A stretch of DNA of 64,000 nucleotides from Oxalobacteraceae bacterium (GCA_023259175.1 JAHFQV010000007.1:278-64277), one strand, 5' to 3'. Positions 42,011 to 57,104 are shown, counted from the first letter of the stretch. Made by a program: numbers and translations. Notes: a model not told the origin generated them from the letters alone.

Positions 42011-43225
42011 ATGTCGGTACTGGGAGAAAATATGTTGCCACTCGTTTCCTTTTTACCTCTCGTCAACGCGCAGCATGCGGTGTGCGCCATTTTGCCTCAA
42101 ACCTCTACTGAGGACGGTGCGCAAGTTCTTAAGCTTTGCCTGCATTTGCAAGCAAGTGGTTCGCTTGCGAAATTACAAGCGATTCGTCTCTGCCTCCCAA
42201 TGCACACGCTTTCTTTACAGGACTTTCCTGTGAGTTTGATCGAAGATTCAAACTTTATTTTTTCGGTGCCCCGTAGCCGATTACAAGATGATAGCGCGGC
42301 ACTGCAGGTGTTTGAGCGGCAATTGCAAGATTTTGCCTTGCGCTCTTATGCCGCAAACGCTACGCGGACCCTGGAAAATCCAAAGCGACTGGTGAGTGAT
42401 GAACTGTTTTCTGGAAGGAGTCAGGCAGCTAAGCTAAGTGCAGTGAATCAGCTTCCGGTGACGCCCACTTGGCTAACGATGGCCAGCAATTTGCCGGACA
42501 TGACACATTTTTATTTGGCGCGGGAACGGGGATTTGATTTATTTTCTGGGGATTTCGCGTTTGATGCTAAGCAGGGTGTGCATAGTCGAGATTTGCGCAC
42601 CCAGACCTTGCTCCTACAACTTCTTAAACTCGTCGCTCGTGATGCAGAAACCAAAGAACTTGAACTGGTTTTTAAGCAGGATGCGAATTTGAGTTTTATG
42701 TTGCTCAAGATGGTGCGCACAGCGGCCTTTGCGCGCGCCGTCAAGGTCGCAAGCTATACCCAAGCCATTAGTATGTTGGGACGGCGACAATTGCAAAGGT
42801 GGTTGCAAATGCTGCTCTATGCGGGCGCGGAAACCGCCGGGGTAGCTCATCATCCTTTGATGCTCAGAGCGGCGTTTCGAGCGGCCATGATGGAAGGGCT
42901 TATGAAAAAATTAGAGCAAGATTGCCAGCAGCAAGATGGCGCTTTTATGGTTGGTATGTTTTCCCTGCTCGATTTGTTATTCGCGATGCCCATGCAGGAA
43001 ATAATTCCTTCACTGAATTTGCCTGAGAGTTTGGAGCAGGCTTTGTTGAACAGGTCGGGCTTAATGGGTGCCTGTTTAAATTTGGTGGAGCAGGCAGACC
43101 GTATCCACAATCGCGCCGACCTTGATGTCGAAAACCTGCTGAATCAAGCGCAATGCAGTTCCGAAGATTATTACCGCTTGCTGATGCAAGCTTATGCCTG
43201 GGTCGCACAGTTGGGACAAATCTAG
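42011..43225 (+). CDS. HDOD-domain signalling protein with degenerate EAL-like N-terminus
   Basis: GFDLFSGDF (EAL C-terminal remnant); FKQDANLSFMLLKMV, AISMLGRRQLQRWL, AFMVGMFSLLD. Confidence 0.78.
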   Translation: MSVLGENMLPLVSFLPLVNAQHAVCAILPQTSTEDGAQVLKLCLHLQASGSLAKLQAIRLCLPMHTLSLQDFPVSLIEDSNFIFSVPRSRLQDDSAALQVFERQLQDFALRSYAANATRTLENPKRLVSDELFSGRSQAAKLSAVNQLPVTPTWLTMASNLPDMTHFYLARERGFDLFSGDFAFDAKQGVHSRDLRTQTLLLQLLKLVARDAETKELELVFKQDANLSFMLLKMVRTAAFARAVKVASYTQAISMLGRRQLQRWLQMLLYAGAETAGVAHHPLMLRAAFRAAMMEGLMKKLEQDCQQQDGAFMVGMFSLLDLLFAMPMQEIIPSLNLPESLEQALLNRSGLMGACLNLVEQADRIHNRADLDVENLLNQAQCSSEDYYRLLMQAYAWVAQLGQI

Positions 43226-43387: not shown

Positions 43388-43564
43388 TCTGGCCTGTTCT
43401 GGCCGCACAAATCCCTTTGATTACTTTGGTTTTCTGTCTGCGTAAATATACGTATGGAAGGCCACCATTTTCTCGCGCCTATGTTTCGATCTCTTGCTAC
43501 ACCCAGCTTTCTGCGCAGTGGCACTACTACGCATCTTGATATGAATTTTAAGCACTCGCTGTCG

Positions 43565-44557
43565 ATGCGCAAATTCGGTATGGCGATTTTGGTTTTGCTG
43601 TTCGCGGTTTTTTTACAGGCATGTTCTGCACCTGCGCTCAAACCACATCAAGCCGAACCGAGTAAAGAGGTCGTGCGCGATGCGAGTAAAGATAATGCCA
43701 AAGAGATCGTCAAAGACAATGGATCGCTGACCCAGGTGGAGATTCCACCAGTGCCCAAAATTTTACGACCTGTACGAATTGGGCTGGCGCTGGGAGGCGG
43801 CGCGGCTCGTGGTTTTGCGCATATCGGCGTGATCAAAGTATTGGAGGCCAATGGCATCGTTCCCGACATCGTCGTCGGCACCAGTGCGGGTAGTGTGGTG
43901 GGCGCGATGTATGCGTCTGGATACAATGGCGCGAGCTTGCAAAAACTTGCTATGGAAATGGACGAGGCAACTATTTCGGATTGGTCTTTGCCGATTTTTT
44001 CCAAGAGTAGTGGTGTGCTCAAGGGCGAAGCCTTACAAAATTATGTTAATAAGTTGGTGCAACAAGTGCCGATTGAAAAACTTAAGAAGCCATTCGGTGC
44101 AGTAGCGACCGATCTGAATACCGGCTTGCCCATTCTTTTTCAGCGCGGTAACACCGGATTGGCGGTGCGCGCTTCGTCTTCAGTTCCTGGGGTATTTCAA
44201 CCCGTCAAAATCAATGAACGTCAGTATGTTGATGGTGGTTTAGTCTCGCCTGTGCCGGTACGTTTTGCGCGTGAAATGGGGGCTGATATCGTGATTGCCG
44301 TGAATATTTCTTCGACACCCGACACGCAAGCAGCATCGAGTTCTTTAGAAGTTTTGATGCAGACGTTTACCATCATGGGGCAAAGCTTAAATCAGTTTGA
44401 ACTGAAAAATGCCGACGTGGTGATCAAGCCTGATTTGCCGGGGATGAAGGGCAATGATTTCAATGGTCGAAGCCGTGCAATTGCGGCTGGTGAGCGTGCT
44501 GCGAAACAAGTCATCGCGGAATTAAAAGAGAAAATAAAACGCTTCCAAGAGCACTAG
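43565..44557 (+). CDS. Patatin-like phospholipase, predicted lipoprotein (start uncertain)
   Basis: Lipobox LQAC; GGGAARG, GTSAG nucleophile, YVDGG. Confidence 0.9.
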   Translation: MRKFGMAILVLLFAVFLQACSAPALKPHQAEPSKEVVRDASKDNAKEIVKDNGSLTQVEIPPVPKILRPVRIGLALGGGAARGFAHIGVIKVLEANGIVPDIVVGTSAGSVVGAMYASGYNGASLQKLAMEMDEATISDWSLPIFSKSSGVLKGEALQNYVNKLVQQVPIEKLKKPFGAVATDLNTGLPILFQRGNTGLAVRASSSVPGVFQPVKINERQYVDGGLVSPVPVRFAREMGADIVIAVNISSTPDTQAASSSLEVLMQTFTIMGQSLNQFELKNADVVIKPDLPGMKGNDFNGRSRAIAAGERAAKQVIAELKEKIKRFQEH

Positions 44558-44579: not shown

Positions 44580-45137
44580 TTATTGCTCTGTCTCGGTCGT
44601 GCTCGTTGCTGCAGTTTCAGGAATCCGGCGTGCGCCGTTAAAACGCTTTTTCCAATAGCTTAAATCCATACTTTCGATGCGCACTTTGCCACCGGCTGAT
44701 GGTGCGTGTATGAATTTATTATCGCCAAGGTAGATGCCAACGTGTGAGAAACTTTTTTTCACGGTATTGTAAAAAACCAGATCGCCAGGTTGTAAATCTT
44801 TGCTATCGATTTTGTTGCCCTGCTTGCTAATCTCTTTGGCGGTGCGAGGCAGTTCTGCTTCGTTGGAAGTCTTGAAAACAAAACGTACAAAACCACTGCA
44901 ATCGAGGCCATTTTCCGGCGTATTGCCACCTCGTTTGTATTTAATGCCAAGTAAATTCATGGCATTGATGGTCAAGTCGGAAGTGCGGTCACGAAAATCG
45001 CGCAAGGCTGTCAATGCATTGGTTTTTTCCTTTTCCTTGGCTTCATCAGCGTGCCCCAAGCTTACTGTGCAAGCGAGCGCAATCAGAACGCAAGACTGTA
45101 ACAACCGACGGGTGGATGAAGAGAGCAATTTGAGCAT
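44580..45137 (-). CDS. NlpC/P60 (C40) cell-wall peptidase with signal peptide (start moved to MLKLL)
   Basis: LDCSGFV, LQPGDLVFY, SHVGIYLG, FIHAP. Confidence 0.92.
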   Translation of the reverse strand: MLKLLSSSTRRLLQSCVLIALACTVSLGHADEAKEKEKTNALTALRDFRDRTSDLTINAMNLLGIKYKRGGNTPENGLDCSGFVRFVFKTSNEAELPRTAKEISKQGNKIDSKDLQPGDLVFYNTVKKSFSHVGIYLGDNKFIHAPSAGGKVRIESMDLSYWKKRFNGARRIPETAATSTTETEQ

Positions 45138-45315
45138 TCGGCTATTTTTCGACTGACATGAAAAATCAAGGAAAGAATTTTTAAGTATAGCCGATTTCGG
45201 GTAGGATGAGTTTTGCAGTACAAAATTTTGCGCGGCGGTTTTTCGCATGGGCGTGGTCGGGTACGATGGTTGCGATAATAATTTATGAGTAGTGTCAGTA
45301 CAAAGGAGAAATGGA

Positions 45316-45729
45316 ATGAAGTCGAAGTTGATACTGGAAAGTAGTGATGTTAAGGCTATTTTAGTGGCTGCAGAAAACGAGGCGCTACTGCATGATTGGA
45401 AAGTGTCAATCGCGCTTGTTGATGAGGGTGGACATTTACTCGGCATGCTACGTCTCGATGGCGCTTCACCGATGTCAGCGCAAATGGCGGTGTCGAAAGC
45501 GGTTACCTCGGCTTTTGGTCGTCGCGACACCAAGGTATTTGAAGATATTATTAATAATGGTCGGCATTCGTTTTTAAGTGCGCCTGGCTTATCCGGCATG
45601 CTCGAAGGCGGCTTAGCCATTCTGCTGAGTGGTCAGTGCGTGGGAGCGATTGGTGTTTCGGGCGTGAAGTCAAATGAAGATGTGCAAATCGCCAAAGCCG
45701 GCTTGGATGCCTTCTTGGCGACTGTTTGA
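45316..45729 (+). CDS. GlcG/HbpS family heme-binding protein
   Basis: SIALVDEGGHLL, KAVTSA, LEGGLAI, GAIGVSG, EDVQIA. Confidence 0.88.
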   Translation: MKSKLILESSDVKAILVAAENEALLHDWKVSIALVDEGGHLLGMLRLDGASPMSAQMAVSKAVTSAFGRRDTKVFEDIINNGRHSFLSAPGLSGMLEGGLAILLSGQCVGAIGVSGVKSNEDVQIAKAGLDAFLATV

Positions 45730-45763: not shown

Positions 45764-47008
45764 CTAACTCGAATGACGCGCAATAAAATCGATCACTCTT
45801 GGGCAAATCAGGTCGCGCCATTTGCGGCCTGAAAAAATCCCATAGTGTCCGCAACCCTGCGCAACGTATTCTTCTTTCATATTGGCAGGTAGGCCGGTAC
45901 AAAGATCGTGTGCCGCCCGTGTTTGGCCTGCACCTGAAATGTCGTCAAGTTCACCTTCGACCGTAAATAGCGCCACGGTTCGTATGTCTTGTGGTTTCAC
46001 TCGTTTGCCTTCAACATCCCAAGTACCTTGCGGCAGTCGAAATTCTTGAAATACGGTCTTAATCGTCTCTAGGTAATATTCTGCTGGTAAGTCTAATACG
46101 GCGTTATATTCATCGTAAAACTTACGATGTTGTTCTGCTGATTCGTCGTCACCTGTGACGAGATGCTCATAAAAATCCCAATGACTTTGCGCATGTCGAT
46201 CAGGATTCATCGCTACAAAGCCCGCATGTTGCAAAAAACCCGGATAAACTTTGCGAGCAAAACCCGGGTAACTCGGTGGCACACTGTAAATCACGTTATT
46301 TTCAAACCACGAAAATTTTTTCTCGGTCGCGAGATTGTTGACTTGGGTGGGCGATTTGCGCGGGTCGATAGGGCCGCCCATCATCGTCATGGTACAAGGA
46401 AGCGCAGGGTCTTTTTCGGTGGCCATCAGGGAGATAGCCGCTAACACGGGAACCGTGGGTTGGCAGACTGAGATGACATGCAACTGCGGACCCAAGTGAC
46501 GGATAAATTCTTGCACATAGTAGATGTAGTCATGCAGATGAAACGGTCCGGCAGAGAGTGGCACCATGCGCGCATCGGTCCAGTCAGTAATGTAGACATC
46601 ATGCAGTGGCAAGAGACTTTTTACAGTATCGCGCAGCAGCGTAGCGTGGTGACCCGATAAAGGGGCGACGATTAGAATTTTCTTTTGCTTTGGCGCTCTA
46701 CTCGTGGATTTTGTGTTGAGCGCCTTCTTTTTAAAATGAACTAGGGTGCAGAAGGGTTTGATAATGATTTTTTCTTCTTTGACCTCGATCACTTGATCAT
46801 CGTTTTGGACATGATCTATATTAAATTGCGGTTTCTCGTAATCTTTTCCTAATCGATAAACTAATTCGTAGGCAGCGGCGATCTTTTGTGAATAAGGGCC
46901 GTAAGAGAGCGGCGAAGCTGGGTTGCTGAAAAATTTTGAACTTGCTGCGGCCCAGTGGGTGAAAGGGGTCAAAAATGAGCGGTTCAATTCGTGAATTTGG
47001 TACAGCAT
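45764..47008 (-). CDS. phaZ: Intracellular polyhydroxyalkanoate depolymerase (PhaZ1 type; start moved to MLYQI)
   Basis: VAPLSGHHATLLRDTV, DVYITDW, VCQP nucleophile, MGGPID, VEGELDDISG, GHYGIFSG. Confidence 0.94.
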   Translation of the reverse strand: MLYQIHELNRSFLTPFTHWAAASSKFFSNPASPLSYGPYSQKIAAAYELVYRLGKDYEKPQFNIDHVQNDDQVIEVKEEKIIIKPFCTLVHFKKKALNTKSTSRAPKQKKILIVAPLSGHHATLLRDTVKSLLPLHDVYITDWTDARMVPLSAGPFHLHDYIYYVQEFIRHLGPQLHVISVCQPTVPVLAAISLMATEKDPALPCTMTMMGGPIDPRKSPTQVNNLATEKKFSWFENNVIYSVPPSYPGFARKVYPGFLQHAGFVAMNPDRHAQSHWDFYEHLVTGDDESAEQHRKFYDEYNAVLDLPAEYYLETIKTVFQEFRLPQGTWDVEGKRVKPQDIRTVALFTVEGELDDISGAGQTRAAHDLCTGLPANMKEEYVAQGCGHYGIFSGRKWRDLICPRVIDFIARHSS

Positions 47009-47131: not shown

Positions 47132-50100
47132 TCAATTTGAGACGCTGGGGATGGAGATTGATTGCAGCAGGTCGGCGGCACCGTCAAAATCATAGCGAAA
47201 CATTTTGTTTGATAATTGTCCCAATTGTTCCTTATCAAGCGCAGTTTCAAAATCGGTATAGTTTTCTTGAAAAAAATCGATCGCATCGGCATTGGAGCCG
47301 TCAAGCAAGCTATTGAGCCGCTCTCTCAGTTCATCGAAATTGAGATGCAAATGCGATTGTTTAACCGGATTGTTGTCGCTAGGATGTAGGGTGAAATAAG
47401 TTTCTAGCTCCGATAGGCCTTTGAGTAATTCTGCGCGCGCATTTTGCCTATGCGCGACAAATTCAGGTAGCTGATAGTCAGGCAAGGCGGTCAATTCGAG
47501 ATAAGCCTCTATTTCGCACATTGCACCTTCAAGTTGGTGTGCGCCTAAGGTGGCGCTTAAGCCTTTAAGTGTGTGTATGGCGCGCTCGAATTCTTTTAAA
47601 TTAACTGTGGGTATTTCAGTTAAAACGTTTTGTAGAAGGCTGTCTTGGGATTGCAGGAAGCGATTCAATAAATGGAGGTAGAGCGCATGATTGCCAGAGA
47701 CTGATCGTAAGCCATATTTACTGTCAAAATATTGAAACTGCACCATAGGCTTGTGATCCGACGTGGCGCTTGCCCGTGAACCTAGTCTCGCTTCTTGACG
47801 GGTCCAAAGTTGTACGGTTGCAAAAAGCTGTTTGGGATCAAAAGGCTTGGCGAGATAGTCTTGCATGCCTTCCCCGACGCAACGGTCCTTAGTTCCCTTC
47901 ATGGCATGGGCGGTCAGTGCGATGATGGGGATATGGTCGTATTGACTGTGCTTGCGAATATACAGTGTCGCGTGATGTCCATCCATAATGGGCATCTCTA
48001 GGTCCATGAGTATCAAATTAAAATAATCATTGGGCCGACTTTCTAATAATTTGATTGTTTCTTCGCCGTTTTCAGTGACACTGACTTCAAATCCGATTTG
48101 TGACAAGAGTTCCACTGCGATTTCTTGATTGAATTCATTGTCTTCTGCCAGCAAAATTCGCCGATTCGAGGAGTGAGGCTGAGTTTGAGATGACAGAAAC
48201 AAGTCGTTGTGCTTAGCATCTCTGGATTGCTTGAGTTCCAGTCGGGTGGAGAGTAGGGGCTGGCTATAACTCAATGCAAAAATATTTGGCGTAATTTCAT
48301 CGTCTCTTACGATCTTGTTTTCTTCAAACAGACCCTGCCTGGGTTTTGCATCACTCGCATGGGCAATCGGCAGCCGGATTGCGAAAGAAAAAATGGAGCC
48401 TTGCCCTATCGTGCTGTCCACTTGAATGGATCCATGCATGAGTTCTATGAGTTGTTTTGAGATACTAAGCCCCAAGCCAGTACCGCCATAATTGCGGGTG
48501 GTCGAGCCATCGCCTTGGGTAAAGGCTTGAAATAGATTCTCGATTTGTTTGTCGGACATGCCGATGCCAGTATCCCGCACTGAAAATTTTAATTCCACCA
48601 TGGTCGAAGGAATTGCTGGATCATCGTTTTGTGCGCAGCTCACTTCAATCTCACCACGCTCGGTAAATTTGACCGCGTTGTTGACCAAATTGGTCAAAAT
48701 TTGTCCTATGCGCAAAGAATCGCCGATGAGATAGCTCGGTAAGTTGGGCGAAAGCTGCAGATGAAAGAGGATGCCTTTTTCGTTGGCTTTTTGCGAGGTG
48801 ATACTGGTGACGTGAGCGAAAACATCATGCAGGGAAAACGGCGCGAGCTCGATATCGAGTTTGCCAGCTTCGATTTTTGAAAAATCTAAAATGTCGTTTA
48901 TGATGCCTAATAATGAATTCGCGGCGTGCTGGATTTTTTGTATGTAATCATGCTGCTTGAGATCGAGCTCGGTTTGCAAGGCCAAGTAGGCCATTCCAAT
49001 AATGGCATTCATAGGTGTGCGAATTTCGTGACTCATGTTGGCGAGAAATTCGGACTTCAGCTTGGTTGATTCTTCGGCTTTTTGCCTTTCTTTTCTTTCC
49101 TTCGCTCTGGCATGCTCTACTTTTTGAATCGCAAGGAGCAATTGTTCTTGAGTCTCTTGTAATTCCTGATACACCCCTGCATTGTCTAAGGCGATTGCCG
49201 CATAGGCGCAGATGGTGCTGAAGATAAGTTGTTCGCGGTCGCCATAGGCATGTTCTTTGGCTGATTGTATCGTCATGACCCCGAGCACACGCTCGCCAAT
49301 GATCAAGGGCGCATATAACAAGCTCAGCGTATTGTGGGTTTCGTTTGGATTGATCGGGCGATTGTCCTGGGCACTGATGGCAATCATGAACTCTCGTTTT
49401 TCACGTACGCAGCGGGCGCAATAGGCAGCTTGATTACTTACTTCGATCTGGTGATGCGCAATCGGGGTATCGTTTTCGACACCGAAAACTTGGGTCAATA
49501 GCTCGGCTTTTTCGTCTAGCAAGTAAGTCACGAAAGTGCTCGCATCGAGCAAGCTTTGCAAGTGTTTGTGGATGGCGATAAATACGGAAGAAATTTCAAG
49601 TTTGGCGGTAATTTCTTGTCCGATTTTTCCGAGCTTGACCAAGGTGTCGCGGGTGTCTTGCAAAGCGTGAGCACGATTGGTTTCGGCGACCGCGATGAGA
49701 TGATGGTATTGCGCTTCCGCTTGTGCTTTTTCGGTTTGGTGATGATCTTCGATATTCGCCGTTTTATAAGCCACCCGAAGATTGCTCTCATATTTTTCTG
49801 CTTCGATGGCTTGCCGCGAGCAGGCCAAAGCTTGCGCTAGATTGCCAGCGTTCGCCCATGCATCGCTGAGCATAATGAGTAGCTCAGCAGGCGCATGCCA
49901 AGCCTCGATGGTAGCGCCCGCCGCACGCGCTTTTTCAAGAAAATGAATGACCGCATTTGGCTCAGGAAAATCAAAAGGCTTGGGTAATTCATGGCGCGCA
50001 TGGATTTCAGCCAAGGCTTGATACAAGCTAATATTAAGCGCTGAGAAGTTATATTTTTTGCTCAAGGCTTGCGCTTCGTCGATTGCGGTTAATGCGGATT

Positions 50101-51208
50101 CGGGTTGATTATTCAGCGACAGCGCACGGGCATAACGGATCAATGTTTGCGGAAGATCGTCCATCGATTTGGCGAGACGAAATAGTTCGAGCGAGTTTTC
50201 AAAAGCATTCAATGCATTCGGAAGATCAAGTTCAAGCATTAAGGTTTCAGCGAGCTCACGGTAGGCGATGGCCTTATTAATTCCAGCACAGTTCTGCGGA
50301 AAAAACGCCAAGGCTTCTTCCAGCGTTTGCCGACTTTTTTCGGTATGGCCGAGTAGTCTTTGTGAGCGCCCGAGGTAGGCGAAACAAAAGCCCATAATGC
50401 TAGGCCAGCCCGCTTGCTGCGCGTGGCTTAGCGCGAGGTCAATGGCTAGGGTCGCGCTTTCCAGGTCTGCGATGTTTTGAAATACTTCGCATGCGTTTCC
50501 CGCCGATACAATTGCTAGGCGCAGCATCCCACATTGCTTGGATAATTCGCTGGCTTTGAGGTAATGCCGTGCTGCTTTGGCTGGGTCGCGACGACCATAG
50601 ATTACGCCATAAGCTGCTTCAACATGAGCCGCAATGGCAGGTAAGTGACTAAAATGGGCATTGATGAGAAAGCAGCGAATCTTTTCCTTGGCAAGAAAAG
50701 GGTTGGAGAACGCGAGTTCGTAGATTTGCCAAGCTTCGGTCAGTTCTTTGCGTTTCCGATCACCACATTTTCGGTAAAACTCTAGAGCGTTCTGGCAAGA
50801 GTCATTTTCTCTTTGCGTGTCGCCCATGGTGAGGGCGAGCAGTGCATCAACGATCCACGCATCACCTAAACCGAGTAAATTATGATTCGACGCGAAACCC
50901 AATTTCCCCTGTGCTAAATACCGCTCTGCATAGGCAAAGTCGCCCATGAGTGCAGAAGTCTCAGCGCGCACTAAGTCGATGCGGGCGCGAATGTCGCGTA
51001 CTCGTGAGAGTTCTTCAGTTGTAAAATTATCGGGATGATTGGCGAGAATTTGTTCTATTTCGTCAATTTGAAATAAAGCACGCTGACAATCGCTTTGACG
51101 AATGTGCCAAGTATGCGTCACTAGGGCGCCAATATTCTCCCAGCTCTCGGGTCGTGCGTTCCGGTCTTCAGTACGTTCACGTATGTCATCTGAGGCATAC
51201 AATTCCAT
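47132..51208 (-). CDS. Cytoplasmic hybrid histidine kinase: TPR array - GAF - HisKA - HATPase - REC - HPt
   Basis: About 500 aa of helical repeats; GAF (APLIIGERVLGVMTIQS...AIALDNA); FLANMSHEIRTPMN; DTGIGM, GGTGLGL; ILMDLEMP; HTLKG; no TM seen. Confidence 0.92.
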   Translation of the reverse strand: MELYASDDIRERTEDRNARPESWENIGALVTHTWHIRQSDCQRALFQIDEIEQILANHPDNFTTEELSRVRDIRARIDLVRAETSALMGDFAYAERYLAQGKLGFASNHNLLGLGDAWIVDALLALTMGDTQRENDSCQNALEFYRKCGDRKRKELTEAWQIYELAFSNPFLAKEKIRCFLINAHFSHLPAIAAHVEAAYGVIYGRRDPAKAARHYLKASELSKQCGMLRLAIVSAGNACEVFQNIADLESATLAIDLALSHAQQAGWPSIMGFCFAYLGRSQRLLGHTEKSRQTLEEALAFFPQNCAGINKAIAYRELAETLMLELDLPNALNAFENSLELFRLAKSMDDLPQTLIRYARALSLNNQPESALTAIDEAQALSKKYNFSALNISLYQALAEIHARHELPKPFDFPEPNAVIHFLEKARAAGATIEAWHAPAELLIMLSDAWANAGNLAQALACSRQAIEAEKYESNLRVAYKTANIEDHHQTEKAQAEAQYHHLIAVAETNRAHALQDTRDTLVKLGKIGQEITAKLEISSVFIAIHKHLQSLLDASTFVTYLLDEKAELLTQVFGVENDTPIAHHQIEVSNQAAYCARCVREKREFMIAISAQDNRPINPNETHNTLSLLYAPLIIGERVLGVMTIQSAKEHAYGDREQLIFSTICAYAAIALDNAGVYQELQETQEQLLLAIQKVEHARAKERKERQKAEESTKLKSEFLANMSHEIRTPMNAIIGMAYLALQTELDLKQHDYIQKIQHAANSLLGIINDILDFSKIEAGKLDIELAPFSLHDVFAHVTSITSQKANEKGILFHLQLSPNLPSYLIGDSLRIGQILTNLVNNAVKFTERGEIEVSCAQNDDPAIPSTMVELKFSVRDTGIGMSDKQIENLFQAFTQGDGSTTRNYGGTGLGLSISKQLIELMHGSIQVDSTIGQGSIFSFAIRLPIAHASDAKPRQGLFEENKIVRDDEITPNIFALSYSQPLLSTRLELKQSRDAKHNDLFLSSQTQPHSSNRRILLAEDNEFNQEIAVELLSQIGFEVSVTENGEETIKLLESRPNDYFNLILMDLEMPIMDGHHATLYIRKHSQYDHIPIIALTAHAMKGTKDRCVGEGMQDYLAKPFDPKQLFATVQLWTRQEARLGSRASATSDHKPMVQFQYFDSKYGLRSVSGNHALYLHLLNRFLQSQDSLLQNVLTEIPTVNLKEFERAIHTLKGLSATLGAHQLEGAMCEIEAYLELTALPDYQLPEFVAHRQNARAELLKGLSELETYFTLHPSDNNPVKQSHLHLNFDELRERLNSLLDGSNADAIDFFQENYTDFETALDKEQLGQLSNKMFRYDFDGAADLLQSISIPSVSN

Positions 51209-51584
51209 AAGACCCACCTTTAAAAGAAATGCGATGGCTTATTCTGACTGATGGTTTGCGGCTTCCTATCATCTCTGCGATTTGGAGGCACCTAGCGATA
51301 TTACGGTATAACGATAGCGTACTTGAGTATAAACATTTATTTTGAGAATTGTTGTTGAGTTTTTGTGGAAAATTTGTTGAAAGTTTGTGCCTGCGTCGGC
51401 ATGACTGTTGTTAGAAACCTGCTTTTTTTCTTGGATTTTCGGGGAATTGCCCGCTTTTTTAGTCGTGATTCTCAATTGCTTACCCGTCGTCAAGCAATCG
51501 CGTTAGAATTCCAATTGGCAATTATATTGATTTGCTATTAATGTCGCCTTTGCGTGCTTAAGCTTGTTGGATTTATATATCAAT

Positions 51585-54500
51585 ATGACAGAGATTTCTT
51601 TCGATTCTTCGCTAGATTGGATGGAGCAAACGCTCAGTGGCATTGATATTTTGCGTGACTCTATTCCCAATGGCTTGGTCGCCGCCGCCGCGATGGAAAC
51701 GCGTGCACAACGGAATTCTGATGCTAAGCTTGCTGCGGGCGCCATCCTAGTTTCGGCGTTCGCTGACTATTATGAAAATCGACTGGTTCAAGCGCAAGTG
51801 AAGTTGGAACAATTAATTCCAATTTTTGAGGACACAGTAGATCGTCATGGCATGGTGTTTGTGCGAACTGGACTTGCGATCGTCTATCGTAAGCTCGGTA
51901 ATAATCAGGAAGCCCGTCGAATTTGCGAGTCGCATGTTTTACAAAATATCGGCGACGCCCCGCCACGATTGGGCATACTCGCTTTGAATATTTATGGCAT
52001 CGTGTTGCAAGAACTCGATTGCACAGAACTCGCAATACGTTATTTTTACAAAGCGCTTGAGGTTGCGACCAGCATCAATTCGGCCAGTCGCATGGCCCAG
52101 ATTACGGCCAATTTAGGGGAAGTTCTTTACATCACGGGTAACGTCGAAGCGGCTGAGGAATTATTGAGCCGCGCCAGCCAATTGTCGCCCACCGTTTCCG
52201 AAAAGTGGTTATTGCCGTTTAGTTTGGCGATGCTGGCGCTGTGTAAGATATCGCTCAATAAAAACGAAGACGCTTACGACATCATTTCGCACTTTGTTGA
52301 AGTTGACGAAAGCGAAGTGGGTTATGCGAATTCCTATCGCGCATTTTATTTTGCGGTCGCCGCCTATACGTTTTTGATGCGGGGCGATGTCACTGGTGCG
52401 CAAAGATTTAGCGCGCTGTCCATCAAATTGATCGATGAAATTGAAGACCCTCACTTAAAGCCTTATATTTGGTGGGTGAGCGGCTTTTTGCATAGAAAAA
52501 ACGGGGCTTACGAATTAGCGATCGTCGATTTGCGTCGTGCGATTGATGAAATAGGCGATAGCGGTTATATGCATTTACCGCTACGCGCAATTAAAGAGCT
52601 GGCCGAAATTTACGCTGAATTAGGCCAGTGGCAGGCGGCCTACACTGAACAAAAACGCTATTTGTTTTTATGGGATCGTGCGCAAGAGCGTTCTGCCAGA
52701 ATCCAGCTTGAAAATTTAAAGATACAGACTGAATATACCGTCGCCGAAAAGGACCGCATTCATAAGGAAGTCTTGGTAAGTGAACGTAAGTCGATGGAAG
52801 ACGAGTTGCAGCGCATGCTTACCGAGCGCGAAACGATTTTGGAAAATTCCATCGTCGGTATGTTGTTCCTCAATAAATTTGGTCGTGTGCAATGGGTCAA
52901 TACGCCTTTGTGCAAGATTTTTGGTGTCGAGCGCGAAAACGTTTTGGGGGCTTCCCTAGAAATGTTTTATGAGTCGCGTGAAATCTATCTTCGCTATGGC
53001 GCGGCAGTAAGTCAAGCCGTGCTCAAAGGTGAATCCTACGAGACCGAATTGCGTATGCGACGCAGTGACGGTTCCTTATTTTGGGTTCAATTTTCGGGAC
53101 GCGCGGTCAATAAAAACGATTTGTCTTTCGGTACCGTTTGGGTCGTCATGGACATTTCCGCTCGCCGACAGTTAGAGAGCGATTTACAAAAATCAGAATA
53201 TAACTACCGTCTGCTGGTCAATAATGTGACCGAAGGGATTGTCGTCGTTCAGGATGGAAAGATCGCTTTTGCCAATCGCTTGATTCAAAAAATTACTGGT
53301 CTTAAGCAAGAGGATTTAATTGGCTCGCCGTTTACCGATACCATTTACGTTGACGATGTAGCGATGGTCGCGTCCCGCCATCAAAGGCGTTTGCGGGGTG
53401 AGGATGTTGAACAATATTATCAAATCCGTCTGCAGCATAGGATTAGCCAAACCTTGATTTGGGTGGAGGTTTCATCGGTTCTGATTGAATGGGAAGAACG
53501 CCCAGCGACACTTTCATTTATCTCTGACCTGACCCAGCGCAAACTGCTCGAATCTCAATTAAAAGAGAGCATGGACGAACAGATGCGTTTGCAGACTTTG
53601 CAAATGCAAAATGAGCTAAAAGTGTCTGAGCTTGCGCGCCGCCATGCCGAAGAAACGACGGAAGCGAAATCCCTGTTTCTGGCCAATATGAGTCACGAAA
53701 TACGCACTCCAATGAACGCCATTATCGGTATGGCGCATTTGGCTTTGAAGACGGCTTTAAACCCAAAGCAAAAAGATTATCTCGAAAAAATACATCGTGC
53801 CGGTATGTCTTTGATGGGCATTATTAACGACATTTTGGACTTTTCAAAAATAGAAGCGGGTAAGCTTGATATTGAAGATGTCGAGTTTTATTTAGATGAG
53901 GTTTTCAATAGCGTTGCGGTTGTGACGAGTAGTAAGGCCGAAGAAAAGGGTTTGGAGTATTTGTTTGATGTTGCTCAGGATATTCCTAAACGACTGCGTG
54001 GTGATCCACTACGCTTAGGGCAGGTACTCATTAATCTCCTAAACAATGCTATCAAATTTACGGCCAACGGCGAGGTCAGCCTGCGTTGCACGGTATTGGA
54101 GCGGCAGCAAGACCGTGTGGTACTCGAATTTTTGGTGTCCGATACTGGGCTAGGCATGAGTGAAACCCAAGTGTCGAAACTGTTTATGCCCTTTAGCCAG
54201 GGCGATGAATCGACCACCCGCAAGTTTGGTGGAACAGGCTTGGGCTTATCAATCTCCAAGGGCATGGTTGACCTGATGGGCGGCGAAATCAGCATTGCAA
54301 GCGCATCTGGGCAAGGAAGTCAGGTTAAATTTAGTTTGCCGCTCGTCGCGGTTGAAAATGAGAAGTTAGCTTCACGTTCGAAGGCATTTGAAAAACTCCA
54401 TGCCTTGATTGTGGATGATCATCCCCGCGCAGCGACCCTATTGGCTGAACGACTACAATCGTTTGGACTTTCCACCGAAGTTGAAACCTCGGGAGAGAAA

Positions 54501-55862
54501 GCGCTGGCGCTCTTATTGCAGCGTGATCACGGACTACAATTTGATACCGTTTTCGTTGATTGGCGTATGCCCAATATGGACGGCAATGAGTTGATTTCAT
54601 GTTTGCGCAATGCGAGCTTGAAATGGATACCAAAAATTGCTTTGGTCGGGGTGACCGCGCGCGAAAGCCTGAGTAATCGCGAGGAATTAACCTTGGCCGA
54701 TGCTTATCTTGATAAGCCCTTTAATGCCTCCAATGTATTTGATTGTTTGGTCAATATGTTTGGTTCTCAACACCAAAATATTCAAGACAGACAAGAATTT
54801 TCAGCTCATCGCTACAAAAATTTGCGTGTTCTGCTGGTAGAAGATAATCTGGTTAATCAGCAGATCGCCACCGAGTTGTTGGAGTCGGTTGGGATTGAAG
54901 TTGATGTGGCTGAAAACGGTCGGGTCGCGCTCGATCAATTGAATGCGCATGGTGATGATCACTACGGTATGGTCTTTATGGACGTACAGATGCCGGAGAT
55001 GGATGGCCACGAAGCGACCAAGTTGATACGGGCGCAAAGTCGGTTTGACAAACTACCCGTCGTGGCCATGACTGCCCATGCTTTACTGATAGAGAGAGAG
55101 CGCTGTTTTGCCTCCGGCATGAATGCCCACGTCGCCAAGCCGGTGTCTCCGAATGAGTTTTATCAGACGATTGCGCAATGGTGTAGTCGTTTTATTTTGC
55201 GATCGAGTGTGCCACTCATTACCGATAAGGTCGCCGATTGTATGCCAGCGATCAATGGCATCGATATGCGTCAAGGTTTAAACCGAACCATGGGTGATCG
55301 GCAACTGTATTTGAAGTTGCTGCGTTTATTTGTACAAGATCAAAGTGAGGTCATTGCTTTGATACGCCAGTTACTCGCGGAGAAAAATCATGAAGGAGCG
55401 GAACGGGTTGCCCACACCTTAAAAGGGGTCGCCGCCTTGATCGGCGCAGATGTGCAATATGCTGCGGCTGATATTGAAGTCTTAATCCGGCAGGGTAGCG
55501 ACATTGAAATTTTGGATGGTAAATTAAACGATTGTGGCACCCGTTTGCGGGTGACGATCGCTAGCATCGAGCAGTGTTTGACCCATGAAAATGCGATCAA
55601 TAATTTGGAAGGCATTACACCGCGCGGGCTGGTAGTGTCGAGTGAAGATGTGTTGAACAAATTAAAGCGCTGTTACAAGCTTATTAGTAGCTATGAAGGC
55701 GAGGCTCTGGATGCTTTGGTGGAGTCCTCGGAAGAATTAAGTATCGCCTTTGGTGTTGACGTGCAAAAGCAGATTATGCGTGCCGCCAGTCAGTATGATT
55801 TTGACGTGGTGTTGTCGATCATGAAGGGCAATGCGCAGTTGGCAGGTGTAGAGTTCGAATAA
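51585..55862 (+). CDS. Cytoplasmic hybrid histidine kinase: TPR array - PAS - PAS - HisKA - HATPase - REC - REC - HPt
   Basis: Helical repeats (NIYGIVLQELD, ANLGEVLY); two PAS folds; FLANMSHEIRTPMN; DTGLGM, GGTGLGL; FVDWRMP and FMDVQMP; HTLKG; no TM seen. Confidence 0.92.
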   Translation: MTEISFDSSLDWMEQTLSGIDILRDSIPNGLVAAAAMETRAQRNSDAKLAAGAILVSAFADYYENRLVQAQVKLEQLIPIFEDTVDRHGMVFVRTGLAIVYRKLGNNQEARRICESHVLQNIGDAPPRLGILALNIYGIVLQELDCTELAIRYFYKALEVATSINSASRMAQITANLGEVLYITGNVEAAEELLSRASQLSPTVSEKWLLPFSLAMLALCKISLNKNEDAYDIISHFVEVDESEVGYANSYRAFYFAVAAYTFLMRGDVTGAQRFSALSIKLIDEIEDPHLKPYIWWVSGFLHRKNGAYELAIVDLRRAIDEIGDSGYMHLPLRAIKELAEIYAELGQWQAAYTEQKRYLFLWDRAQERSARIQLENLKIQTEYTVAEKDRIHKEVLVSERKSMEDELQRMLTERETILENSIVGMLFLNKFGRVQWVNTPLCKIFGVERENVLGASLEMFYESREIYLRYGAAVSQAVLKGESYETELRMRRSDGSLFWVQFSGRAVNKNDLSFGTVWVVMDISARRQLESDLQKSEYNYRLLVNNVTEGIVVVQDGKIAFANRLIQKITGLKQEDLIGSPFTDTIYVDDVAMVASRHQRRLRGEDVEQYYQIRLQHRISQTLIWVEVSSVLIEWEERPATLSFISDLTQRKLLESQLKESMDEQMRLQTLQMQNELKVSELARRHAEETTEAKSLFLANMSHEIRTPMNAIIGMAHLALKTALNPKQKDYLEKIHRAGMSLMGIINDILDFSKIEAGKLDIEDVEFYLDEVFNSVAVVTSSKAEEKGLEYLFDVAQDIPKRLRGDPLRLGQVLINLLNNAIKFTANGEVSLRCTVLERQQDRVVLEFLVSDTGLGMSETQVSKLFMPFSQGDESTTRKFGGTGLGLSISKGMVDLMGGEISIASASGQGSQVKFSLPLVAVENEKLASRSKAFEKLHALIVDDHPRAATLLAERLQSFGLSTEVETSGEKALALLLQRDHGLQFDTVFVDWRMPNMDGNELISCLRNASLKWIPKIALVGVTARESLSNREELTLADAYLDKPFNASNVFDCLVNMFGSQHQNIQDRQEFSAHRYKNLRVLLVEDNLVNQQIATELLESVGIEVDVAENGRVALDQLNAHGDDHYGMVFMDVQMPEMDGHEATKLIRAQSRFDKLPVVAMTAHALLIERERCFASGMNAHVAKPVSPNEFYQTIAQWCSRFILRSSVPLITDKVADCMPAINGIDMRQGLNRTMGDRQLYLKLLRLFVQDQSEVIALIRQLLAEKNHEGAERVAHTLKGVAALIGADVQYAAADIEVLIRQGSDIEILDGKLNDCGTRLRVTIASIEQCLTHENAINNLEGITPRGLVVSSEDVLNKLKRCYKLISSYEGEALDALVESSEELSIAFGVDVQKQIMRAASQYDFDVVLSIMKGNAQLAGVEFE

Positions 55863-55953
55863 TACTGAAAACAGATTTGCTCTAGTGCTTGTTTGTGATT
55901 TTCGCGGAGATGTGCTTATTCCTAGTTGGCTCCACTTGTACAATAGGTGACCC

Positions 55954-57069
55954 ATGAGTGACACAATCAAATTCGATTCAAAACAAGTAGTCCTGATTGT
56001 GGACGATACACCGGATAACATCACCTTGCTCTCTGCTTTGCTGAAGGATGTTTATCGCATTAAGATCGCGACCAATGGCGTGAAAGCCTTGCATATTGCT
56101 TCGACTCTTCCCAGTCCTGATTTGATTTTACTCGATGTCATGATGCCGGAAATGGACGGCTATGAAACCTGCCGCCGCCTCAAAGCAAATACCCTCACTG
56201 CCGATATTCCTATCATCTTTTTGACTGCGAAAAGTCAAGTTTCCGACGAAGAAATGGGTTTGAAACTTGGAGCTGTTGATTACATCAGCAAACCTGTCAG
56301 TCCCCCCATTGTATTGGCGCGGGTGGCGACTCAATTGAATTTAGTTCGCGCTCGCAATTTACTTCAAGACCAAAATAAAGGCTTGGAATATTTGGTACAA
56401 GACCGCACCCGTAAGCTCGCCAAAATGCAAGATGCGATTATTATGGCGATGGCTTCCTTGGCTGAGACGCGGGATAATGAAACTGGAAATCATATTCGTC
56501 GCACGCAAAACTATGTCGCTGCTTTGGCACGTCAATTACAAAACGTGCCGCGTTTTTCCGCTGAATTGACGGAAGAAAATATTGAACTCCTCTATAAATC
56601 AGCTCCCTTGCATGACATCGGTAAAGTCGGTATTCCCGATAATATTTTGCTCAAACCTGGTAAGTTAGACGCTGAAGAATTCGAAGTTATGAAGCTGCAC
56701 ACCGTCTATGGTCGCGAGACTATTTTGTGTGTGGAACGCTATCTTGGTGAGAGTAATGAATTTTTACGCTTCGCTCGCGAAATTACCTACTCGCATCAAG
56801 AAAAATGGGATGGCTCGGGCTATCCCGAAAATCTGGTAGGTGACGAAATCCCCATATCGGCGCGCTTAATGGCAGTCGCGGATGTGTATGATGCACTTAT
56901 TTCCAAGCGCGTGTATAAGCCTGCGTTTTCTCACGAGGAAGCACTTGATATTATGCGGAAAGGGCGGGGGACTCATTTCGATCCAGATATTCTCGATGTG
57001 TTTTTGCGTATCTCGGATGAGTTCAGTGAAATCGCACAACGCTTTCGAGAAAGCGAAGGAAGTTATTGA
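55954..57069 (+). CDS. REC + HD-GYP c-di-GMP phosphodiesterase (RpfG-like response regulator)
   Basis: LIVDD, LLDVMMP, FLTAK, ISKP; ETGNH, LHDIGKVGIPD, HQEKWDGSGYP, VADVYDAL. Confidence 0.93.
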   Translation: MSDTIKFDSKQVVLIVDDTPDNITLLSALLKDVYRIKIATNGVKALHIASTLPSPDLILLDVMMPEMDGYETCRRLKANTLTADIPIIFLTAKSQVSDEEMGLKLGAVDYISKPVSPPIVLARVATQLNLVRARNLLQDQNKGLEYLVQDRTRKLAKMQDAIIMAMASLAETRDNETGNHIRRTQNYVAALARQLQNVPRFSAELTEENIELLYKSAPLHDIGKVGIPDNILLKPGKLDAEEFEVMKLHTVYGRETILCVERYLGESNEFLRFAREITYSHQEKWDGSGYPENLVGDEIPISARLMAVADVYDALISKRVYKPAFSHEEALDIMRKGRGTHFDPDILDVFLRISDEFSEIAQRFRESEGSY

Positions 57070-57071
57070 CG

Positions 57072-57104
57072 AAAAAAAAGCAAAGGATGCCTTTGCTTTT
57101 TTTT
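57072..57104. terminator. Bidirectional intrinsic terminator
   Basis: Perfect 15-bp inverted repeat AAAAAAAAGCAAAGG-ATG-CCTTTGCTTTTTTTT between convergent genes. Confidence 0.9.

Follow-up and report, generated by a model that had tools for sequence, protein, structure and literature searches.

Organisation of the locus

The locus described here lies in a window of 64,000 nt, which is the whole stretch of DNA that was analysed (Oxalobacteraceae bacterium, GCA_023259175.1, JAHFQV010000007.1:278-64277). All coordinates without a prefix are window positions. The locus consists of two divergent genes for soluble hybrid histidine kinases, which are called HK_L and HK_R, and one gene for a response regulator that carries a REC domain and an HD-GYP domain. 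The three genes, their domains, and the non-coding elements between and after them are as follows.

47132..51208 (-): HK_L, soluble hybrid histidine kinase, 1358 aa; the open reading frame (ORF) reaches GTG 51217
49850-51208 (-): TPR array of HK_L
49640-49849 (-): long coiled-coil helix of HK_L
49181-49585 (-): GAF domain of HK_L
48863-49057 (-): HisKA domain of HK_L, His727
48368-48724 (-): HATPase domain of HK_L
47813-48157 (-): REC domain of HK_L, Asp1069
47444-47671 (-): Hpt domain of HK_L, His1212
47153-47338 (-): post-Hpt tail of HK_L
51209..51584 (no strand): divergent HK_L/HK_R intergenic region, 376 nt, with the predicted promoters of both kinase genes
51585..55862 (+): HK_R, soluble hybrid histidine kinase, 1425 aa; the ORF reaches TTG 51564
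51585-52619 (+): TPR array of HK_R
52629-52820 (+): long helix of HK_R
52839-53171 (+): PAS1 domain of HK_R
53202-53501 (+): PAS2 domain of HK_R
53664-53861 (+): HisKA domain of HK_R, His704
54000-54344 (+): HATPase domain of HK_R
54381-54764 (+): REC1 domain of HK_R, Asp992, with canonical DD/D/T/K residues
54828-55172 (+): REC2 domain of HK_R, Asp1133
55317-55544 (+): Hpt domain of HK_R, His1277
55650-55835 (+): post-Hpt tail of HK_R
55863..55953 (+): gap between HK_R and the HD-GYP gene, 91 nt, without a terminator-like fold (z 0.25)
55954..57069 (+): REC-HD-GYP response regulator with the architecture of the RpfG family, 371 aa
55990-56322 (+): REC domain of the regulator, Asp61
56404-57054 (+): HD-GYP domain of the regulator
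57072..57104 (no strand): bidirectional intrinsic terminator, A8-GCAAAGG-ATG-CCTTTGC-T8

The most likely starts are ATG 51208 for HK_L and ATG 51585 for HK_R, as judged from identical database proteins and ortholog alignments. The terminator is a perfect stem of 7 bp between A8 and T8. Its fold energy is -17.2 kcal/mol (z about -5.3) on one strand and -16.4 kcal/mol (z about -5.9) on the other. It separates the HD-GYP gene from a convergent gene for a pyridine-nucleotide-disulphide oxidoreductase. HK_R and the HD-GYP gene are probably co-transcribed because the gap between them has no terminator-like fold and a strong terminator follows the HD-GYP gene. The intergenic region between the two kinase genes is poorly conserved among the four closest species, except for a common CGCGTTAGAATT stretch, and no conserved small ORF was found in it. 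The named homologs of both kinases and of the HD-GYP protein all belong to Undibacterium (Oxalobacteraceae), and the window is assigned to a freshwater member of this genus. The genome from which the window derives has a size of 4.03 Mb in 233 contigs and contains seven HD-GYP genes.

Domain architecture and sensor folds of the two kinases

HK_L has the domain order TPR, coiled coil, GAF, HisKA, HATPase_c, REC, and Hpt. HK_R has the domain order TPR, coiled coil, PAS, PAS, HisKA, HATPase_c, REC, REC, and Hpt. The third gene encodes REC followed by HD_5/HD. The Pfam matches to the TPR parts are weak for HK_L (TPR_2 and TPR_12) and reach 2e-12 for HK_R (TPR_12). The phospho-accepting residues listed above are all present in HK_L, HK_R, and the regulator. 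REC1 of HK_R is not an obvious pseudo-receiver since it has the canonical acidic pocket, Thr, and Lys.

No transmembrane helices were predicted in the three proteins, where the maximal mean Kyte-Doolittle values over 19-residue windows are 1.55, 1.29, and 1.29 against a threshold of 1.6. The N-termini of both kinases were modelled using AlphaFold2 (AF2) with ortholog alignments. The HK_L model, with a predicted local distance difference test (pLDDT) of 89.8 and a predicted template modelling score (pTM) of 0.83, exhibits 22 repeat helices and then a 70-residue helix that leads into GAF. The HK_R model (pLDDT 89.4, pTM 0.85) exhibits 17 repeat helices and then a 64-residue helix that leads into PAS. 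The best Foldseek matches of both N-termini are TPR arrays (LGN/Pins, APC/C, OGT, Rap/NprR, and MalT domain III) with E values of 1e-6 to 1e-7. Both N-termini are thus confirmed, at the level of the models, as TPR superhelices.

The two arrays differ at the sequence level, where no similarity between them was detectable using BLASTP. The HK_R array matches consensus TPR designs in a sequence search of the PDB, and no solved structures related by sequence to the HK_L array were found. Many residues of the HK_R array are invariant across orthologs. A P-loop NTPase domain (NB-ARC/NACHT-type, STAND) was not found in either kinase using Pfam. PADLOC gave no defence-family match on the TPR parts, and its sole match was a weak one in the HATPase region.

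These results bear on a preliminary description of this DNA that had been made from the sequence alone. It had reported two divergent, membrane-free kinases of about 1360 and 1430 aa with N-terminal TPR-like arrays of 400-500 aa, followed by a REC-HD-GYP gene closed by a perfect terminator. The three ORFs, the lack of membrane helices, the TPR folds, and the terminator were all borne out. The sizes of the kinases become 1358 and 1425 aa with the most likely ATG starts. The array length holds for HK_L (about 450 aa before the long helix) and is corrected to about 345 aa for HK_R.

HK_R and the regulator gene form a conserved pair

The ortholog of the HK_R TPR domain is present as a single copy in 57 of the 84 Undibacterium species genomes. 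HK_R is followed by the HD-GYP gene on the same strand in 24 of the 25 Undibacterium loci examined, with the convergent oxidoreductase gene next to them and phaZ, the gene for an intracellular polyhydroxybutyrate (PHB) depolymerase, upstream. The exception is L030:6064-7296 (genome G159), where a TPR-only ORF of 415 aa is all that is left of HK_R and the HD-GYP gene has been lost; the phaZ and oxidoreductase genes are kept.

The pair was also identified outside of the genus. A second genus (L031) has the same architecture, and its HK_R and HD-GYP genes overlap by 8 nt. Another genus (L034) has a kinase with TPR and four PAS domains that is located 10 nt upstream of an HD-GYP gene. A third genus (L032:5171-8350 in genome G095, L033, and L035) has a shorter HK_R relative in which TPR is fused directly to HisKA without PAS. 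This kinase has two receivers and an Hpt, without the post-Hpt tail and without an adjacent HD-GYP gene. The variant in L032 shows, as far as domain architecture goes, that TPR can be the sole input of such a kinase.

HK_R and the REC-HD-GYP protein are very probably a cognate phosphorelay in the style of RpfC/RpfG, given that their operon is conserved in the 24 Undibacterium loci and in two other genera.

HK_L is a late arrival at the locus

TPR arrays orthologous to that of HK_L, at 58% identity or more, were found in the genome of the window and in five other of the 84 genus genomes (about 6/84 species). The whole neighbourhood is syntenic in four of those five HK_L-bearing genomes, and the three genes co-occur there. 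The cultured species U. cyanobacteriorum (L001) has the same locus. Full-length relatives of HK_L that are 40-45% identical were found at unlinked loci in 18 further genomes. Those unlinked loci do not have HK_R, an HD-GYP gene, or phaZ nearby; their neighbours are metabolic genes, and one has a NarL-type regulator upstream. Seven species of the sister clade carry a stand-alone REC-Hpt gene of 346-392 aa in the phaZ/HK_R slot. The same slot is empty in 12 outgroup loci. The stand-alone REC-Hpt genes are located as follows.

L011:4612-5682
L012:9404-10444
L013:4561-5739
L014:4577-5644
L015:4523-5608
L016:4656-5756
L017:9451-10506

Two trees were constructed by a quick search, with their support given as the Shimodaira-Hasegawa-like approximate likelihood ratio test (SH-aLRT) only. 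In the concatenated tree of PhaZ, HD-GYP, and HK_R, the loci with HK_L and those with REC-Hpt group together as a single clade (SH-aLRT 100). The tree of the REC-Hpt region, for which the HK_R C-termini were the outgroup, places the stand-alone REC-Hpt proteins and the HK_L copies of the locus in one clade (SH-aLRT 99) that is sister to the unlinked full-length kinases. The lineage of the window forms a trichotomy with two sister groups in the concatenated tree, so the main evidence that the N-terminus was lost comes from the REC-Hpt tree and its full-length outgroup.

The REC-Hpt remnant is intact in all seven species, and the ratio of nonsynonymous to synonymous substitution rates (dN/dS) is about 0.12-0.25 where measurable, with dS saturated. 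Judging from its intactness and these ratios, the remnant is kept under purifying selection. The most economical history would be that an orphan kinase of the HK_L type moved once into the phaZ/HK_R region in the ancestor of a small Undibacterium clade. HK_L would then have stayed full-length in the lineage of the window, and the sister lineage would have lost about 1000 N-terminal residues. HK_L is probably best treated as an orphan kinase that may, and need not, feed the HD-GYP regulator.

The HK_L-type TPR-GAF module is present in 31 of 121 genomes and 17 of 64 genera of the bacterial family, where its outputs are hybrid kinases, plain kinases, or GGDEF domains. Four genomes of other genera (G001, G051, G065, and G092) have at least 12 copies of the HK_L-type TPR each, in ORFs of 560-1500 aa of which some are cut by contig ends. 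This distribution suggests that the HK_L-type TPR-GAF sensors are a large, diversifying cytoplasmic family. The genome of the window also has a TPR-GAF-GGDEF paralog of 925 aa (L036:6009-8786, contig C187 of G000) with 26% identity to HK_L in the TPR array. The same type of input is therefore wired to c-di-GMP (cyclic di-GMP) synthesis as well as to a kinase.

Relationship between HK_L and HK_R

The genome of the window has only four hybrid kinases of the BarA/TorS-like subfamily. HK_L and HK_R are reciprocal closest paralogs among them, with 55% identity in the kinase core in comparison to 46-51% for the other two. Their H-boxes, which had been described as near-identical, do share 53 of 66 residues. 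Only 26 of those 53 identical residues have the same codon, and the nucleotide identity is 74%. Recent gene conversion was rejected on the basis of these codons, and the likeness of the H-boxes is attributed, from codon usage, to selection on a motif of the subfamily.

HK_L and HK_R also exhibit a post-Hpt tail that the other two hybrid kinases of the subfamily in the genome do not have. This conserved C-terminal module is about 62 aa long and has the pattern LxxLLxxxDxEAxDxF...(Y/F)DF(D/E)xAxxxL, and there is no Pfam model for it. A profile search with the module, cut off at E <= 0.001, gave 1218 cluster representatives. Ten matches were scanned, and in eight of them the module comes after Hpt; these are stand-alone Hpt proteins, REC-Hpt proteins, and hybrid kinases of diverse kinds. 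It is almost always C-terminal after Hpt and is sometimes present in two to three copies. The tail was considered as a degenerate second Hpt and rejected as such since hhalign gave no relation. It was also rejected as a marker of HD-GYP-coupled kinases since the module is widespread after Hpt in diverse proteins.

Catalytic residues of the regulator

The regulator retains Glu176, His180, His220-Asp221, His249, His281, Asp310, GYP, KPG (LLKPGKL), and RxYK (RVYK). In the HHE motif, Gln282 takes the place of the second His (SHQEKWDGSGYP), and the codons of His281-Gln282 are located at 56794-56799. The regulator thus has one of the two His residues of HHExxDGxGYP, the motif of a complete HD-GYP phosphodiesterase, and all its other metal and substrate residues. 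Gln282 is a fixed residue: it is found in 23 of the 24 Undibacterium loci, in all 119 database orthologs, and also in the second genus. The more distant ortholog in L034 and PA4781 of Pseudomonas aeruginosa retain HH. No literature on an HQE variant of the HD-GYP motif was found.

Within most of the genus, identity is 83-91% for the HD-GYP protein in comparison to 40-57% for the HK_R TPR, and the HD-GYP protein is probably functional as judged from this conservation. The homolog search with the HD-GYP protein matched close orthologs only.

Neighbouring genes

45764..47008 (-): phaZ, intracellular PHB depolymerase (TIGR01849, E 7e-188)
42011-43225 (+): HDOD-domain protein, 404 aa, with HDOD at residues 207-317 and no domain assigned to its N-terminal half
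43454-44557: patatin-like gene
44580-45620: NlpC/P60 gene

The phaZ gene lies downstream of HK_L in the same orientation, 123 nt away; the gap between them has no terminator-like fold, and phaZ may be co-transcribed with HK_L by read-through. In the rest of the genus, phaZ and HK_R are directly adjacent and divergent. That phaZ might be functionally linked to the relay was considered and rejected: the adjacency is found across the genus and is absent in the two other genera. It is more likely to be plain synteny, given this absence.

The HDOD, patatin-like, and NlpC/P60 genes are syntenic across the close clade.

Proposed mechanism and alternative explanations

We consider it probable, with some reserve, that HK_R and the REC-HD-GYP protein are cognate partners in a cytoplasmic, multistep phosphorelay of RpfC/RpfG design with co-transcribed genes, and that HK_L is a relocated orphan. 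The steps below are what we infer for the phosphotransfer, the enzymatic output, and the nature of the cue. A cytoplasmic cue would act on the TPR superhelix of HK_R, on its two PAS domains, or on both. The signal would pass through the long and probably dimeric helix into the kinase core. The phosphoryl group would travel from His704 to Asp992 or Asp1133, then to His1277 of the Hpt, and finally to Asp61 of the regulator. Phosphorylation of Asp61 would unmask the HD-GYP domain, as in PA4781, and the domain would then hydrolyse c-di-GMP or pGpG, or act via partners. HK_L comes from the separate, modular TPR-GAF sensor family and would have been relocated into the phaZ/HK_R slot. It has been reported that RpfG-family regulators depend on cognate kinases (bioRxiv 10.1101/2021.11.05.467447).

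Several observations weigh against this explanation. Much of the synteny of HK_R and the regulator gene comes from a single genus in which conservation extends to the whole neighbourhood, and only the two cases outside of the genus are strong evidence for the pairing. HK_L appears to be less of a bystander when its status as the closest paralog of HK_R, the post-Hpt tail common to both kinases, and the retention of the REC-Hpt remnant in the same slot are considered. Gln282 leaves the catalytic output, and any lowering of c-di-GMP, uncertain.

The preliminary description had read the locus as a two-input sensor, where HK_L and HK_R each recognise a protein or peptide cue by their TPR arrays and both Hpt domains feed the single HD-GYP regulator that lowers c-di-GMP. 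We regard this explanation as unlikely. The kinases are indeed arranged head to head, the regulator is the only receiver gene nearby, and the three genes are found together in four other fully sampled species. The reciprocal similarity of the kinase cores and the post-Hpt tail that only these two subfamily kinases of the genome exhibit also favour it. The sister clade has retained exactly the REC-Hpt part of HK_L under low dN/dS, which suggests that a phosphotransfer module matters at this position. A partnership of adjacent c-di-GMP genes through their TPR domains has a precedent in RcbA/RcbB of Vibrio vulnificus (PMC12282931). However, HK_R and the HD-GYP gene occur without HK_L in 19 of the 24 other Undibacterium loci that keep the HD-GYP gene and in two other genera. 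HK_L-like kinases elsewhere are not linked to any HD-GYP gene and are either orphans or paired with another type of regulator. The lack of BLASTP similarity between the two arrays, the lack of a conserved small ORF in the intergenic region that could encode a peptide signal, and the wide distribution of the post-Hpt tail beyond these two kinases also speak against two inputs. The co-occurrence of the three genes, which had been proposed beforehand as a check, was found only inside a narrow clade where everything nearby is syntenic. The RpfC/RpfG-like wiring thus holds for HK_R, which shares a conserved operon with the regulator, and does not extend to HK_L, which arrived in one clade and is present in about 6 of 84 species, with a remnant or an empty slot in its place elsewhere. 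The HD-GYP gene had also been described as the only output, which is right for the immediate locus and has to be qualified by the possible co-transcription of phaZ with HK_L. An intermediate history, in which HK_L became a genuine second input of the HD-GYP regulator through its Hpt or through hetero-association of its TPR array or kinase core with HK_R, and was then pruned in the sister clade to a REC-Hpt phosphate shuttle or sink of the same relay, appears improbable to us.

The proposed phosphorelay from HK_R to the regulator leaves more than one role for the TPR arrays. A protein or peptide ligand is only one option, and MalT-type TPR-like arrays (MalT domain III) bind small molecules. The TPR fold of the protein or peptide sensor that had been suggested was found; a conserved small ORF, a STAND NTPase, and a defence-family match were not. 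An RRNPP-like peptide gene and an Avs-like defence role were rejected on these grounds. The arrays could instead be modules for autoinhibition, oligomerisation, or localisation, with PAS or GAF reading the cue, and we hold this to be a real possibility although we lean against it. In V. vulnificus RcbB, TPR represses the output enzyme and directs polar localisation, and its partner is a TPR protein encoded next door (PMC12282931). Classical small-molecule sensors (GAF or PAS-PAS) are located between the array and the kinase in HK_L and HK_R, and the PAS module varies around a constant TPR, from none in one related genus to four in another. The kinase in L032 is at odds with such a role since its only input appears to be TPR. 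The long helix from the array to the next domain resembles a signalling helix, and the many invariant residues of the HK_R TPR would be in keeping with a defined binding surface.

The output of the proposed phosphorelay was considered in the same way. The lowering of c-di-GMP is not supported as it had been stated in the preliminary description since the HHE motif reads H-Q-E in the orthologous group. It is nevertheless rather doubtful that the regulator is not mainly a c-di-GMP hydrolase and acts on pGpG, binds a nucleotide without hydrolysis, or signals through protein contacts. All other metal and substrate residues are intact, the protein is conserved across most of the genus to a degree typical for active enzymes, and Gln is able to ligate metals. 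A Lysobacter RpfG, which is without the same kind of His, is reported to hydrolyse c-di-GMP robustly (bioRxiv 10.1101/2021.11.05.467447). The alternative outputs are favoured by the near-complete fixation of SHQEKWDGSGYP and by the behaviour of related proteins. Both H276 and H277 of PmGH are metal ligands, and PmGH with the H277A change is inactive (PMC4159591). The preferred substrate of PA4781 is pGpG, and it turns over c-di-GMP slowly (PMC3774798). Xanthomonas RpfG is without a key His, which the review does not specify further, and has low activity (bioRxiv 10.1101/2021.11.05.467447). Signalling by protein contacts has already been proposed for Xanthomonas RpfG and from some PA4781 data.

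Comparison with known systems

The locus works, on the evidence of its architecture, like RpfC/RpfG of Xanthomonas and is not an Rpf ortholog. Both systems have the kinase order HisKA-HATPase-REC-Hpt next to a REC-HD-GYP regulator, and some database homologs of both kinases have been named RpfC automatically. The conserved operon of an RpfC/RpfG-type relay was found for HK_R, and for HK_L it is confined to a narrow clade. RpfC is membrane-bound, responds to diffusible signal factor (DSF), and is linked to rpfF, whereas the kinases of this locus are soluble with inputs of TPR and PAS or GAF, and two receivers are present in HK_R. No gene of the DSF-synthase type (enoyl-CoA hydratase type) was found among the neighbours scanned at 40581-63998. 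The distinction from Rpf is made because there is neither a membrane DSF-sensing input nor an rpfF-type gene among those neighbours. Operons of a hybrid kinase and a REC-HD-GYP regulator are common.

Among solved structures, PA4781 (PDB 4R8Z) gives the best match to the HD-GYP domain (E 7.7e-66, with a full-length domain alignment) and has the same REC-HD-GYP architecture. It differs in retaining HH in the HHE motif and in having GFP instead of GYP. The unphosphorylated PA4781 REC domain covers the active site and phosphorylation is needed for activity; its partner kinase is not identified in that work (PMC3774798).

RcbA/RcbB of V. vulnificus, a TPR protein and a TPR-GGDEF cyclase, is similar in that a cytoplasmic N-terminal TPR controls a c-di-GMP enzyme. 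The genes of the two TPR proteins are adjacent and their products interact through the TPR domains (PMC12282931). The output of RcbB is a fused GGDEF domain without a phosphorelay, so the likeness is one of design and no sequence relationship is claimed.

The N-terminus of HK_R is similar in fold to Rap, NprR, and MalT domain III with Foldseek TM-scores of 0.5-0.58, and homologs give weak TPR_MalT Pfam matches. However, the locus is not a member of the RRNPP, MalT/STAND, or Avs systems. RRNPP receptors have a helix-turn-helix or phosphatase output and an adjacent peptide gene, whereas this locus has kinase cores and no conserved small ORF in the HK_L/HK_R intergenic region. The STAND, MalT, and Avs proteins differ from both kinases, in which Pfam found no NTPase domain and PADLOC found no defence family on the TPR parts, and the top fold matches are generic (LGN and APC/C).

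The literature gave nothing specific on a characterised soluble TPR-fronted histidine kinase that feeds an HD-GYP regulator, or on c-di-GMP in Undibacterium. Many HD-GYP regulators do not have a known partner kinase or cue, and at this locus a kinase and a regulator are cleanly paired across the genus, with a soluble input that could be expressed and screened. The natural HQE variant of the metal ligands bears on the question of which HD-GYP proteins are real hydrolases. The slot is found in three natural states (with the full kinase, with the REC-Hpt remnant, or empty), a series from which it could be learned whether new phosphorelay inputs arise through genomic proximity. Current concepts are left unchanged by these findings: the locus is a tractable example rather than a surprise, and a fairly ordinary form of a known signalling design.

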